Under the pieces are notes generated by a model, which had not been told where the DNA came from, made no database searches, and saw only the letters and a program-made list of their open reading frames with translations. Made by a program: the position numbers and the translations under genes. 64,000 nucleotides of DNA from Escherichia coli (GTDB taxonomy: Bacteria > Pseudomonadota > Gammaproteobacteria > Enterobacterales > Enterobacteriaceae). How positions within the stretch are numbered: position 1 is the first letter of the stretch; the number at the start of each line of letters is the position of its first letter. Location of the stretch: assembly GCF_017348835.2 (NCBI RefSeq), contig NZ_CP071375.1. One strand, written 5' to 3'. Positions 11,726-25,968 of the stretch are shown here, one piece after another.

Positions 11726-11814
11726 ATTAGAAGAAAAGCCGTGGTTTCTAAACCAAGGATTGAACCGCCCCGGAAATCCTGGAGACTAAACTCCCTGAGA
11801 AAGAGGTAAACAGG

Positions 11815-12141
11815 ATGACTAAAAATACTCGTTTTTCCCCCGAAGTCCGTCAGCGGGCGATTCGTATGGTTCTGGAAAGTCAGGATGAATATGACTCACA
11901 GTGGGCGGCAATTTGTTCCATTGCCCCAAAGATTGGCTGTACGCCGGAGACTCTGCGTGTCTGGGTTCGCCAGCATGAGCGGGATACCGGGAGTGGTGAT
12001 GGTGGACTCACCACCGCTGAACGTCAGCGTCTGAAAGAGCTGGAACGTGAAAATCGTGAACTGCGCCGCAGTAACGATATCCTTCGCCAGGCTTCCGCTT
12101 ATTTTGCGAAGGCGGAGTTCGACCGCCTCTGGAAAAAATAA
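11815..12141 (+). CDS. IS3-family transposase OrfA (helix-turn-helix/leucine-zipper part)
   Basis: 108-aa ORF with the IS629/IS1203-type OrfA sequence. Confidence 0.85.
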
Positions 12142-13028
12142 TGCCACTGCTGGATAAGCTGCGTGAGCAGTACGGGGTCGGACCGGTATGCAGCGAACTG
12201 CATATTGCCCCGTCAACGTATTACCATTGTCAGCAACAGCGACATCATCCGGATAAACGCAGTGCCCGTGCGCAGCACGATGACTGGCTGAAGAAAGAGA
12301 TACAGCGCGTATACGATGAAAATCACCAGGTATACAGTGTGCGTAAAGTCTGGCGTCAGTTGTTACGGGAAGGTATCAGAGTGGCCAGATGCACTGTGGC
12401 ACGTCTCATGGCAGTTATGGGACTTGCCGGTGTTCTCCGGGGTAAAAAGGTCCGCACTACCGTCAGCCGGAAAGCCGTTGCCGCATGCGACCGCGTAAAC
12501 CGTCAGTTCGTGGCAGAACGTCCAGACCAGTTGTGGGTGGCTGATTTTACCTGGGTAAGCACATGGCAGGGCTTCGTTTATGTGGCGTTCATCATTGATG
12601 TGTTCGCCGGATACATCGTGGGATGGCAGGTCTCATCATCCATGGAAACAACATTCGTGCTGGATGCACTGGAGCAGGCGTTGTGGGCCCGTCGGCCGTC
12701 CGGCACAATCCATCACAGTGATAAAGGTTCTCAGTATGTATCGCTGGCCTACACGCAGCGGCTTAAGGAAGCCGGATTACTGGCATCAACAGGGAGTACT
12801 GGCGACTCGTATGACAACGCGATGGCTGAGAGCATCAATGGTCTTTACAAAGCGGAGGTAATACACCGTAAGAGCTGGAAAAACCGGACAGAAGTGGAAC
12901 TGGCCACACTAACGTGGGTGGACTGGTATAACAATCGACGATTGCTGGAAAGGCTGGGCCATATTCCTCCGGCAGAAGCAGAAAAAGCTTATTATGCTTC
13001 CATCGGAAATAATGATCTGGCAGCCTGA
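12141..13028 (+). CDS. IS3-family transposase OrfB (DDE catalytic part)
   Basis: 295-aa ORF overlapping orfA as in IS3-family frameshift arrangements. Confidence 0.85.
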   Translation: MPLLDKLREQYGVGPVCSELHIAPSTYYHCQQQRHHPDKRSARAQHDDWLKKEIQRVYDENHQVYSVRKVWRQLLREGIRVARCTVARLMAVMGLAGVLRGKKVRTTVSRKAVAACDRVNRQFVAERPDQLWVADFTWVSTWQGFVYVAFIIDVFAGYIVGWQVSSSMETTFVLDALEQALWARRPSGTIHHSDKGSQYVSLAYTQRLKEAGLLASTGSTGDSYDNAMAESINGLYKAEVIHRKSWKNRTEVELATLTWVDWYNNRRLLERLGHIPPAEAEKAYYASIGNNDLAA

Positions 13029-13070
13029 GTTCACAGATAAAACACTCTCCAGGAAACCCGGGGCGGTTCA

Positions 13071-22907: not shown

Positions 22908-24294
22908 ATCGTGAGAACGAGGCGAATATTAGCGATGCCCACCCACAATGTCAAAGCCTGTTTTTTAAATTTGAAATCGTTTGCTGAAATAATCTGCATT
23001 TTGTCGTTTATTCCGACACAACTGGCTTTTTTTCACACTTTTGCGGCTCGGATCGAGGGTATTTCCATAGCCAACGTCCAGTAACCATTCGCCAGTAAAA
23101 CAGCACGGCCCGCACAGCCCAGTCGGCAAACATTCCCATCCAGACACCAACCACACCCCAGCCAAGCATGATTCCCAGCACATAACCGACTACAACCCGA
23201 CAACCCCACATGCTCAACATCGAAACCCACATGGCGTAACGGGCATCACGAGCACCTTTAAATCCAGCGGGTAGCACCCATGAGGCGGACCAAATAGGCA
23301 TAAATAAAGCATTTAGCCAAATCAGAATCACAACGACATGTTTAACCTGTGGATCCTGGGTGTAAAACGATGCCATAAGCCCGGCAAAGGGAGCCGTTAG
23401 CCAGGCGATGGCCGTTAATCCAAGAGTGGACAGCCAGAACACATGCCGCAACTGAATCTCTGCTTGCGCTATCTGCCCTACCCCCAACCTTCGGCCTGTA
23501 ATGATCGTAGAAGCAGAGCCGAGCGCACTTCCGGGTAAGTTGATAAGAGCCGCAATTGAAAACGCGATAAAATTTCCGGCAATAACACTGGTCCCCATCC
23601 CGGCAACGAACATTTGGGTTAATAACCGACCACTGGTAAATAACACTGATTCGACACTCGCTGGAATACCAATCCCCATGACTTCCCAGATAATGCTAAA
23701 ATTCAGCGGTTTAAAATAGCTCTTTAACGAAATCCTTAGCGCAGGATTAAAACCAATCGCCAGCACCCACAAAATTGCAACTGCGCCAATATAACGAGAA
23801 ATGGTTAAACCCAACCCAGCCCCGACAAATCCCAGTCCCGGCCAGGAGAAAAGGCCGTAAATCAATATGCCGCTAATAATAATATTAAGAATATTCAGGC
23901 TACCGTTAATCAGTAGCGGTATTTTCGTATTCCCTGCACCACGAAGTGCCCCGCTACCAATCAAAGTGATGGCAGCTGCTGGATAACTGAGTACCGTCAG
24001 CTCCAGATAAGTCAACGCCAGTGCTTTAACTTCTGTCGTGGCATCACCCGCAACGAAATCAATAATTTGTTCGCCAAAATGATGAATAAGCGTTGCCAAC
24101 AGTACGGCAAACAAAGTCATGATCACCAATGACTGCCGCGTCGCCACCCTCGCTCGTCGTCGATCCCGCTTACCGAGACTAAATGCCACAACGACAGTAG
24201 TACCAAGATCGATAGCAGCAAAAAAAGCCATAATGACCATATTGAAGCTGTCTGAACCGCCCCGGGTTTCCTGGAGAGTGTTTTATCTGTGAAC

Positions 24295-25182
24295 TCAGGC
24301 TGCCAGATCATTATTTCCGATGGAAGCATAATAAGCTTTTTCTGCTTCTGCCGGAGGAATATGGCCCAGCCTTTCCAGCAATCGTCGATTGTTATACCAG
24401 TCCACCCACGTTAGTGTGGCCAGTTCCACTTCTGTCCGGTTTTTCCAGCTCTTACGGTGTATTACCTCCGCTTTGTAAAGACCATTGATGCTCTCAGCCA
24501 TCGCGTTGTCATACGAGTCGCCAGTACTCCCTGTTGATGCCAGTAATCCGGCTTCCTTAAGCCGCTGCGTGTAGGCCAGCGATACATACTGAGAACCTTT
24601 ATCACTGTGATGGATTGTGCCGGACGGCCGACGGGCCCACAACGCCTGCTCCAGTGCATCCAGCACGAATGTTGTTTCCATGGATGATGAGACCTGCCAT
24701 CCCACGATGTATCCGGCGAACACATCAATGATGAACGCCACATAAACGAAGCCCTGCCATGTGCTTACCCAGGTAAAATCAGCCACCCACAACTGGTCTG
24801 GACGTTCTGCCACGAACTGACGGTTTACGCGGTCGCATGCGGCAACGGCTTTCCGGCTGACGGTAGTGCGGACCTTTTTACCCCGGAGAACACCGGCAAG
24901 TCCCATAACTGCCATGAGACGTGCCACAGTGCATCTGGCCACTCTGATACCTTCCCGTAACAACTGACGCCAGACTTTACGCACACCGTATACCTGGTGA
25001 TTTTCATCGTATACGCGCTGTATCTCTTTCTTCAGCCAGTCATCGTGCTGCGCACGGGCACTGCGTTTATCCGGATGATGTCGCTGTTGCTGACAATGGT
25101 AATACGTTGACGGGGCAATATGCAGTTCGCTGCATACCGGTCCGACCCCGTACTGCTCACGCAGCTTATCCAGCAGTGGCAT
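24295..25182 (-). CDS. IS3-family transposase OrfB
   Basis: 295 aa, near-identical to 12141-13028. Confidence 0.85.
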   Translation of the reverse strand: MPLLDKLREQYGVGPVCSELHIAPSTYYHCQQQRHHPDKRSARAQHDDWLKKEIQRVYDENHQVYGVRKVWRQLLREGIRVARCTVARLMAVMGLAGVLRGKKVRTTVSRKAVAACDRVNRQFVAERPDQLWVADFTWVSTWQGFVYVAFIIDVFAGYIVGWQVSSSMETTFVLDALEQALWARRPSGTIHHSDKGSQYVSLAYTQRLKEAGLLASTGSTGDSYDNAMAESINGLYKAEVIHRKSWKNRTEVELATLTWVDWYNNRRLLERLGHIPPAEAEKAYYASIGNNDLAA

Positions 25183-25508
25183 TATTTTTTCCAGAGGCGG
25201 TCGAACTCCGCCTTCGCAAAATAAGCGGAAGCCTGGCGAAGGATATCGTTACTGCGGCGCAGTTCACGATTTTCACGTTCCAGCTCTTTCAGACGCTGAC
25301 GTTCAGCGGTGGTGAGTCCACCATCACCACTCCCGGTATCCCGCTCATGCTGGCGAACCCAGACACGCAGAGTCTCCGGCGTACAGCCAATCTTTGGGGC
25401 AATGGAACAAATTGCCGCCCACTGTGAGTCATATTCATCCTGACTTTCCAGAACCATACGAATCGCCCGCTGACGGACTTCGGGGGAAAAACGAGTATTT
25501 TTAGTCAT
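25182..25508 (-). CDS. IS3-family transposase OrfA
   Basis: 108 aa, identical to 11815-12141 product. Confidence 0.85.
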
Positions 25509-25968
25509 CCTGTTTACCTCTTTCTCAGGGAGTTTAGTCTCCAGGATTTCCGGGGCGGTTCAGTCCGCCAATCCCACGCCGGCCATCGCATCTTTTCCCA
25601 GCCAACTGACCAGAAAAGTGCTCAGGACACCCATCAGCAGGACACAGGCATTCTCCATGTAGATAGGAACAGCAAGCGGGGTTATCTCGCGCCAGAACAA
25701 CACTTTGTAACTCTTGCGTTTGGCGTGCCAGCGAGTGCCGTGAACAACCTGGCGTAAAGCAGAGGAGATATTCAAAGCCGACCTTAATTGCAGAAAGTGA
25801 AACCACATTTCAAATGATGAGGGAGAATCAGCAAAGCTGCAAAGATTTTCGCCAACAAATTGTCTGCAAATGCAACAAACTGTTGATAGAAACGGCAAAC
25901 AGTTGGGAAATTTAAAAATCGGGTTTGACAAAAGATTTTTCGCCGTTAAGATGTGCCTCAACAGCGAT

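Follow-up and report, generated by a model that had tools for sequence, protein, structure and literature searches.

The window, by which is meant the whole 64,000-nucleotide stretch of Escherichia coli DNA that was analysed, carries two separate IS copies in inverted orientation, of which copy 2 is a simple insertion and copy 1 the remainder of a deletion, and the pair appears to recombine so as to invert the DNA between them, the flipped isomer being found in the pig strain F2_81. This reading is held with a probability of roughly 85%. Both orientations are seen, the collinear one in the window and in the pig strain PE164 and the flipped one in F2_81, subject to the accuracy of the F2_81 assembly. 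As the copies are inverted and almost identical, the flip is attributed to homologous recombination, presumably of the RecA type, which would turn the intervening DNA without loss. The features of the region are collected in Table 1.

Table 1. Features of the inverted IS pair, its junctions and the enclosed DNA (positions in the window)
Feature	Position	Strand	Remarks
5'-truncated asnT-island gene	8861–11760	-	
IS copy 1, IS3 family (IS629/IS1203 group)	11761–13070	+	OrfA 11815–12141; OrfB 12141–13028; ALIL pseudoknot 12096–12212
Segment between copies, inversion substrate	13071–24252	.	11,182 bp; collinear in window
yeeJ 3' remnant, internal stop	13071–16498	+	ORFs 13112–16054 and 16079–16498; Big_1/Invasin_D3 Ig-like repeats
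yeeL-like family 9 glycosyltransferase	17079–18131	-	
shiA, shikimate transporter	18446–19762	+	
amn, AMP nucleosidase	19864–21318	+	L001 29065–30519
yeeN	21661–22377	+	
asnW, tRNA-Asn(GTT)	22832–22907	-	
yeeO 3' part (MatE)	23008–24252	-	
Copy 2 target-site duplication, left	24250–24252	.	GTC on + strand
IS copy 2, IS3 family (IS629/IS1203 group)	24253–25562	-	OrfA 25182–25508; OrfB 24295–25182; ALIL pseudoknot 25111–25227
Copy 2 target-site duplication, right	25563–25565	.	GTC on + strand
yeeO 5' part	25563–25808	-	

A repeat search of the window returned a single inverted pair, with arms of 1314 nt at 11757–13070 and 24253–25566, which after trimming gives an element with the ends 5'-TGAACCGCCCCGG ... 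CCGGGGCGGTTCA-3'. The two copies are 1310 bp each, lie 11,182 bp apart in inverted orientation and have one mismatch between them, at element position 576 (A at 12336, G at 24987). A repeat of 1.3 kb with this degree of identity (99.9%) cannot have originated by chance. The initial annotation had placed an inverted pair of near-identical IS copies at 11761–25562, and its outer coordinates prove to be exact.

Both copies are IS3-family elements of the IS629/IS1203 group and display the full anatomy of the family. OrfA (108 aa) matches HTH_Tnp_1 in Pfam (E 2.9e-12) and OrfB (295 aa) matches the rve DDE domain (E 1.3e-26) together with HTH_21, whilst the overlap of orfA and orfB in each copy contains the ALIL frameshift pseudoknot RF01497, scored by Rfam at 120.3 bits against a gathering value of 50. 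The terminal inverted repeats are imperfect, with 22 of 25 positions matching, and the ends read TGAACC...GGTTCA, that is 5'-TG...CA-3'. The length of 1310 bp, the TG...CA ends, the imperfect repeats of about 25 bp, the -1 frameshift between orfA and orfB at the ALIL pseudoknot, the 3-bp target duplication and the many copies are all shared with the IS629/IS1203/IS3411 group of EHEC and Shigella, and in the pig O108:H9-type lineage the copy number is about 26–32 per genome. Unlike reference-like IS629/IS1203 copies, from which it diverges by about 4%, the window element has its own inverted-repeat variant, GGAAATCC / GGAAACCC. At the nucleotide level it is 95.8% identical to the copy that resides in yeeJ of O157:H7 strain Z1815, and 95.9% identical to one assigned by RefSeq to the IS1203 family, both of these being genome copies rather than ISfinder type sequences. 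Where an isoform is defined by at least 95% nucleotide identity to a named element, the window element would rank as an isoform, and not the type sequence, of the IS629/IS1203/IS3411 group. The Z1815 copy is presumably IS629, although this name is absent from its record. A further basis for regarding the O157 yeeJ copy as IS629 is provided by PMC7430833.

Copy 2 is a simple insertion that splits yeeO and is bordered by a 3-bp target duplication. In the orientation of the IS the duplication reads GAC/GAC, and N17, in which yeeO is uninterrupted, has the triplet only once, as GTC. The matching flanks with which copy 2 had been credited are therefore real, the duplication being intact on both sides. 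The element arrived in yeeO by ordinary copy-out/paste-in transposition. The yeeO::IS junction is present in just 2 of 5426 complete genomes, which argues that the events are recent and lineage-specific.

The DNA between the copies lies in its native orientation. It had been described at the outset as collinear with the usual E. coli backbone and free of inversion in this sequence, and both statements hold: the orientation fits the flanks as well as PE164 and N17, in which the order is mtfA(+), asnT(+), yeeJ(+) ... yeeO(-), asnU(+), cbl(-), nac(-), and the segment and the backbone agree in the sign of their GC skew. An inversion already present in the window is excluded by this orientation relative to the flanks and to other E. 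coli, by the intact copy 2 duplication and by the GC skew. The bracketed genes are those originally named (yeeJ-yeeL-shiA-amn-yeeN-asnW-yeeO), with the correction that of yeeJ only a 3' remnant is left, interrupted by an internal stop, and that yeeO is split by copy 2.

A block of genes bracketed by two IS copies has the appearance of a composite transposon, in which both copies and the enclosed DNA would have moved as a unit. The outer flanks, however, are GAT on the left and GTC on the right and thus share no target duplication, and the passenger consists of core backbone genes in their native place and order, so that this explanation is ruled out and its probability is negligible. Copy 2 moreover has a duplication of its own inside yeeO. 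Among 5426 genomes, none showed this IS-bounded 13.8-kb block at a different site, genomic or plasmid, with a shared 3-bp duplication.

Copy 1 has a different history from copy 2 and is the remainder of an IS-anchored deletion. The genes that meet its two ends, an island gene at the IRL and yeeJ at the IRR, are both truncated, and F2_81 still has at this locus 6,979 bp that are absent from the window, which together identify the copy as the mark of a deletion. The flanking triplets are GAT on the left and CTG on the right, the missing target duplication being a consequence of the rearrangement. The remnant of yeeJ lacks 4.57 kb on the 5' side, and with it the IAT_beta domain. The DNA lost comprised the distal end of the island with attR and the yeeJ promoter with the 5' 4.6 kb of the gene, and probably also a third IS copy. 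The full-length N17 homologue of the island gene encodes 1354 aa, is described by RefSeq as NACHT domain-containing and is followed by an OLD/AAA ATPase gene; the island protein gave no Pfam or PADLOC match, and the NACHT label comes from RefSeq alone. The absence of a target duplication at copy 1, and the deletion of which this copy is the mark, had been overlooked in the initial annotation.

The mechanism of the deletion can be approached by comparison with IS629, for which deletions anchored at the element's end and involving transposase and IEE are attributed to Kusumoto et al. 2011 in bioRxiv 10.1101/2023.06.07.543989. The copy 1 deletion is alike in that it begins exactly at the IS terminus, with the adjacent DNA gone, the IS intact and no duplication present. 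The likeness is one of structure alone, since the same product would result from recombination with a directly oriented copy that is now lost. Derivation of the junction from the three IS copies of F2_81 by homologous recombination alone was rejected, as no enumerated inversion or deletion yields the window arrangement; the reason is that the yeeJ copy of F2_81 runs antiparallel to copy 1, and the way in which the deletion came about is therefore deduced rather than reconstructed. An IR-targeted insertion beside that yeeJ copy, with recombination as the next step, was considered as well, but the IRL-IRR rule for targeted transposition (PMC9333248) predicts the opposite orientation, which leaves the junction unexplained. 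An exact-site IS hot spot in yeeJ was rejected, for the F2_81-type and window-type junctions are each unique among the 5426 genomes. In other lineages IS629-group insertions are located about 160–460 bp away from these yeeJ junctions, which points to a hot region rather than a hot site.

The initial annotation had regarded the locus as primed for inversion, and F2_81 supplies a natural example in one public assembly. Over its 64,000 bases the window has 5 differences from PE164. Between the window and F2_81 there is 1 difference in the 11,182 bases of the segment, and there are 3 in the 13,070 bases to the left. In F2_81 the DNA between the island-junction IS and the yeeO IS, which consists of the 11,182-bp segment and 6,979 further bp, is inverted relative to both flanks, with cbl-asnU-yeeO 5' and the island both reversed relative to yeeJ...yeeO 3'. 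The resulting junctions are hybrids, one reading island GAT/IRL...IRR/GAC yeeO-3' and the other yeeO-5' GAC/IRL...IRR/remnant-OLD', so that the IS flanks have been exchanged reciprocally and all four are exact, as homologous recombination predicts. F2_81 also has a third IS copy, in yeeJ, with an intact AAC/AAC duplication (GTT), the target of which is single-copy in uninterrupted yeeJ. The IS beside the yeeO 5' part has two extra substitutions, at positions 36 and 165, which are unexpected under a plain crossover. With only 1–3 differences among the IS copies, their polymorphisms are uninformative for mapping the crossover.

The basis for the F2_81 inversion is thus a single public assembly, in which a mis-join across the 1.3-kb repeats would look identical. 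The inversion would then be an assembly artefact and the pair a potential substrate that had never recombined. Repeats of this length at about 26 per genome are a classic source of mis-joins, and a look-up of the literature and the record found no publication, read data or sequencing technology for F2_81. Set against this, the chromosome deposited for F2_81 is finished and circular, the exact reciprocity extends to all four junction flanks, and the flipped block holds the extra 7 kb and the third IS, coherently placed and with the GTT duplication intact. An artefact is hence considered unlikely.

The order of events could also be reversed, with the F2_81-type arrangement coming first. The island-junction IS would have transposed replicatively, within the same molecule, into yeeO and in this single event have generated both the second copy and the inversion, and the window and PE164 would subsequently have flipped back by homologous recombination, making copy 2 resemble a simple insertion. 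Such a one-step, inversion-type transposition also gives the F2_81 junctions (old island/IRL and IRR/remnant; new IRR/GAC-yeeO-3' and yeeO-5'-GAC/IRL), and it takes as many steps as the favoured history. However, one recombinational flip of the pair is still required, and the collinear order is found in all other E. coli examined. Furthermore, transposition in the IS3 family is of the copy-out/paste-in type with a circular intermediate, which gives simple insertions and no Shapiro-type intramolecular inversions (bioRxiv 10.1101/2023.06.07.543989). This sequence of events is considered distinctly unlikely.

Inversion between two independently placed copies, the favoured reading, has close counterparts. 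IS629 is a mobile multi-copy element, and repeat-mediated inversions are described in E. coli O157 (PMC7430833, PMC8743559). The O157:H7 inversions between inverted prophage or IS repeats likewise have near-identical inverted ends and a reciprocal exchange of flanks, and their isomers also differ among closely related strains (PMC7430833; PMC8743559). Whereas those inversions range in size from hundreds of kb up to 1.15 Mb, often with symmetry about the terminus, the one between the window and F2_81 covers 11–18 kb, lies inside a single replichore and has IS copies, not prophage segments, at its ends. In the IS-mediated RecA-dependent switch of Burkholderia thailandensis (PMC9946442), homologous IS copies similarly act as the recombination substrates that lead to alternative genome structures. 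There, however, a duplication arises between direct repeats and a phenotype has been demonstrated, whereas the yeeJ-yeeO pair gives an inversion that has no evident effect on phenotype, and nothing points to switching within a population.

The inversion is most likely neutral, since no gene is restored or fused. It is very improbable that the IS-bounded segment is a reversible RecA-dependent switch, with both orientations kept in the population and the phenotype changed, that serves bet-hedging rather than being a neutral accident. Such a switch might act on the phenotype by changing how asnW, shiA, amn and yeeN are oriented with respect to replication, or by way of transcription outward from the IS ends. 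The isomers are in evidence in two sister strains only.

The locus is a case of ordinary, textbook IS-driven plasticity, which is well understood and involves no new principle. Structural differences in the asnT-yeeJ-yeeO region among near-identical pig aEPEC/ExPEC O108:H9-type genomes are IS-driven. They comprise the local inversion and the deletion of 7 kb, and in addition the adhesin gene yeeJ has been lost, the exporter gene yeeO disrupted and an island gene of defence type inactivated. The main value of the observation lies in annotation and strain comparison, where such variation should be expected when structures are typed by long reads or when the presence of yeeJ and yeeO is scored. 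As the deletion at copy 1 has removed attR, the island should be locked in place.

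A repeat search of the whole window returns a single long inverted pair (11757-13070 and 24253-25566), which is reduced to two 1310-bp IS copies on trimming to the element termini; these termini coincide exactly with the outer limits proposed in the initial annotation, and the inverted pair that it described is confirmed, far above chance. The copies differ at one base, element position 576 (A at window 12336, G at 24987). Both encode a 108-aa OrfA with an HTH_Tnp_1 domain and a 295-aa OrfB with an rve DDE domain, have an orfA/orfB overlap spanned by an ALIL frameshift pseudoknot (Rfam RF01497, 120 bits), and end in TG...CA with left and right terminal repeats (IRL and IRR) that agree at 22 of 25 positions. 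Both are complete IS3-family elements. The element is 95.8% identical to the IS copy interrupting yeeJ in O157:H7 strain Z1815 and 95.9% identical to a copy labelled 'IS1203 family' by RefSeq, and is therefore named here as an isoform of the IS629/IS1203 group. The O157:H7 copies are taken to be IS629, an assignment also supported by PMC7430833. These strains carry approximately 26-32 copies of this element per chromosome.

Copy 2 is a simple insertion into yeeO. In IS orientation it is flanked on both sides by GAC (plus-strand GTC at 24250-24252 and 25563-25565), a triplet present once in the uninterrupted yeeO of E. coli N17, and both yeeO fragments lie on one strand. Copy 1 was correctly read in the initial annotation as one of an inverted, near-identical pair, but it was missed there that its flanks, GAT and CTG, form no target duplication and that it is a deletion scar. 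To its left lies a minus-strand ORF (8861-11725) of a gene that extends to the junction. The DNA of this ORF and the neighbouring HEPN gene is found in only 8 complete E. coli genomes out of 5426, and in six of these, including N17, the match falls under a full-length gene called 'NACHT domain-containing' by RefSeq. The N17 gene encodes 1354 aa and, from the surrounding DNA, belongs to the same island located at asnU instead of asnT, so that the integrase is likely to act at more than one tRNA-Asn gene. Beyond the 1354-aa gene in N17 comes an OLD/AAA ATPase gene that is divergently transcribed and gives GajA/AriA-like PADLOC hits; the 'NACHT' protein itself has no Pfam or PADLOC match. To the right of copy 1 is an internal position of yeeJ, of which the Ig-like repeats alone are left and the inverse-autotransporter beta domain is missing. 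Copy 1 thus bridges two truncated genes that no intact relative has side by side, and hence marks a deletion. A composite transposon is ruled out by the native backbone content and the lack of a common outer duplication.

Features of the window, of the F2_81 locus (L003) and of yeeJ in other strains
Feature	Position	Strand	Details
Island, distal part	1-11760		asnT-integrated; includes integrase 3' end and HTH genes
IS66-family tnpA/B/C	1063-3262		in island
MazEF pair	5270-5860		in island
LA2681-type HEPN gene	7244-8848		in island
Truncated large gene	8861-11760	-	in island, adjoins copy 1
IS copy 1	11761-13070	+	1310 bp
IS copy 2	24253-25562	-	1310 bp
asnV-ldtA block	28510-37776		hxlB, SDR gene, rpe, two PTS IIA/IIB/IIC sets, DeoR and sugar-binding regulators, RpiB
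IRR remnant in F2_81 extra DNA	L003 2040-2065		26 bp, O157-type IS629 (CTCTCCAGGAAAACCGGGGCGGTTCA)
yeeJ IS629-group insertion, O157:H7	-391 bp		target duplication ACC
yeeJ IS629-group insertion, cat isolate	-174 bp		target duplication CAA

The window differs at only 5 of 64,000 bases from pig strain PE164 (NZ_CP114128.1), an aEPEC/ExPEC hybrid of type O108:H9 that came from a piglet with diarrhoea (PMC12233904). Three of the differences are clustered within copy 2 (24412, 24435, 24436), with two in the other 64 kb, and possibly reflect gene conversion by a different IS copy or assembly polishing differences. In window orientation, PE164 is annotated with mtfA, asnT, the island (integrase, IS66-family element, MazEF, HTH, LA2681-type HEPN gene and truncated large gene, in that order) and IS copy 1; then, between the copies, the yeeJ 3' remnant, a yeeL-like GT9 gene, shiA, amn, yeeN, asnW and the yeeO 3' part; and, beyond copy 2, the yeeO 5' part, asnU, cbl, nac and asnV. 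The mtfA-asnT-yeeJ...cbl-nac orientation of the window is shared by PE164, N17 and K-12, and the GC skew of the inter-IS segment has the sign of the backbone. As originally proposed, the window is taken to be uninverted.

The flipped form is found in F2_81 (NZ_CP043542.1; pig, Australia), which has 1 mismatch to the window over the 11,182 bases of the inter-IS segment (13071-24252) and 3 over 13,070 bases on the left. Its locus has three IS copies (L003 730-2039, 7705-9014 and 20201-21510). Compared with the window, its yeeJ...yeeO 3' stretch keeps the forward direction and the island and cbl-asnU-yeeO 5' are both turned round; the DNA from the island-junction IS to the yeeO IS is hence inverted against either flank. 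Exactly reciprocal junctions are present, island GAT-IRL...IRR-GAC yeeO 3' and yeeO 5' GAC-IRL...IRR-next segment. From the PE164, N17 and K-12 orientation and the sign of the GC skew, the window is taken as the unflipped and F2_81 as the flipped form. The earlier suggestion that the locus is primed for inversion is thereby borne out by one public assembly, which may itself be mis-assembled. Identical F2_81 junctions are also predicted by one-step intramolecular transposition with inversion, the window then being a re-flipped form, but IS3-family elements move by copy-out/paste-in and give simple insertions. Even this disfavoured scheme would still need one recombinational flip.

F2_81 also keeps 6,979 bp absent from the window (L003 2040-9018). 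Besides an IRR remnant, this DNA comprises the 3' 768 bp of the OLD ATPase gene with the island end (matching N17 locus L002 23310-24077), the island attR, a tRNA-Asn 3'-end repeat CGATCCCAGTCAGAGGAGCCA (L003 2800-2826) upstream of yeeJ, the yeeJ promoter and first 4,569 bp, and the third IS copy, which runs antiparallel to yeeJ and has a GTT duplication of its own, plus one more base. F2_81 itself is without 2,348 bp found in N17 that hold the 5' ends of both the 'NACHT' gene and the OLD gene; compared with an intact island and yeeJ, the window has lost approximately 8 kb of unique DNA. As the right attachment site is gone from the window, the island would no longer be excisable by its own integrase and is probably locked in place. 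The F2_81 IRR remnant directly adjoins the resident-IS IRR and is followed by OLD' DNA beginning GAT, the triplet that also precedes IRL at the island junction; the remnant testifies to an earlier, nested IS event.

The window deletion starts precisely where copy 1 ends at its IRR. It could have arisen by transposase-dependent, end-anchored deletion; such deletions are described for IS629 with IEE and ascribed to 'sloppy' strand transfer (bioRxiv 10.1101/2023.06.07.543989). Alternatively, copy 1 may have recombined with a directly oriented yeeJ copy, since lost. Recombination among the present F2_81 copies is ruled out, as the yeeJ copy there is antiparallel. The window breakpoint, IRR followed by CTGCATCAC (13071), lies one base past the GTT duplication of that copy, IRL followed by GTTA CTGCATCAC (L003 9015-9018), an offset that may reflect chance, a hot spot or an event directed by the IS end. 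The two yeeJ junction types are each unique among 5426 genomes. Independent IS629-group insertions are found approximately 160-460 bp away in O157:H7, O145:H28, a pig isolate and other strains. This part of yeeJ (window 13071-13470, with homologous sites in two further loci, L004 and L005) is a recurrent target of IS629-group elements in unrelated lineages and at least a hot region.

The inversion restores or fuses no gene, with yeeO still split and yeeJ still truncated, and is expected to be near-neutral, being small and confined to one replichore. Inversions and deletions driven by IS elements have long been recognised (PMC7430833, PMC8743559); events of this kind are known and the initial interpretation is supported, to which are added a natural inverted isomer and the recognition of copy 1 as a deletion scar.

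The window also holds other features of note. The yeeL-like family 9 glycosyltransferase gene (17079-18131) is an intact 350-aa ORF; K-12 yeeL is a pseudogene. With their flanks, asnW and asnV form a 104-nt, 97% inverted repeat (22828-22931 and 28352-28455), asnU (25969-26044) is a third tRNA-Asn(GTT) copy, and these repeats offer additional short substrates for recombination and sites for island attachment. The block of approximately 9.3 kb between asnV and ldtA, absent there from N17, looks like another asn-tRNA-associated insertion. Finally, an EutP/PduV pseudogene fragment adjoining cobU (approximately 41786-42082) is a leftover of pdu loss, the full pdu operon being present at the corresponding place in N17.
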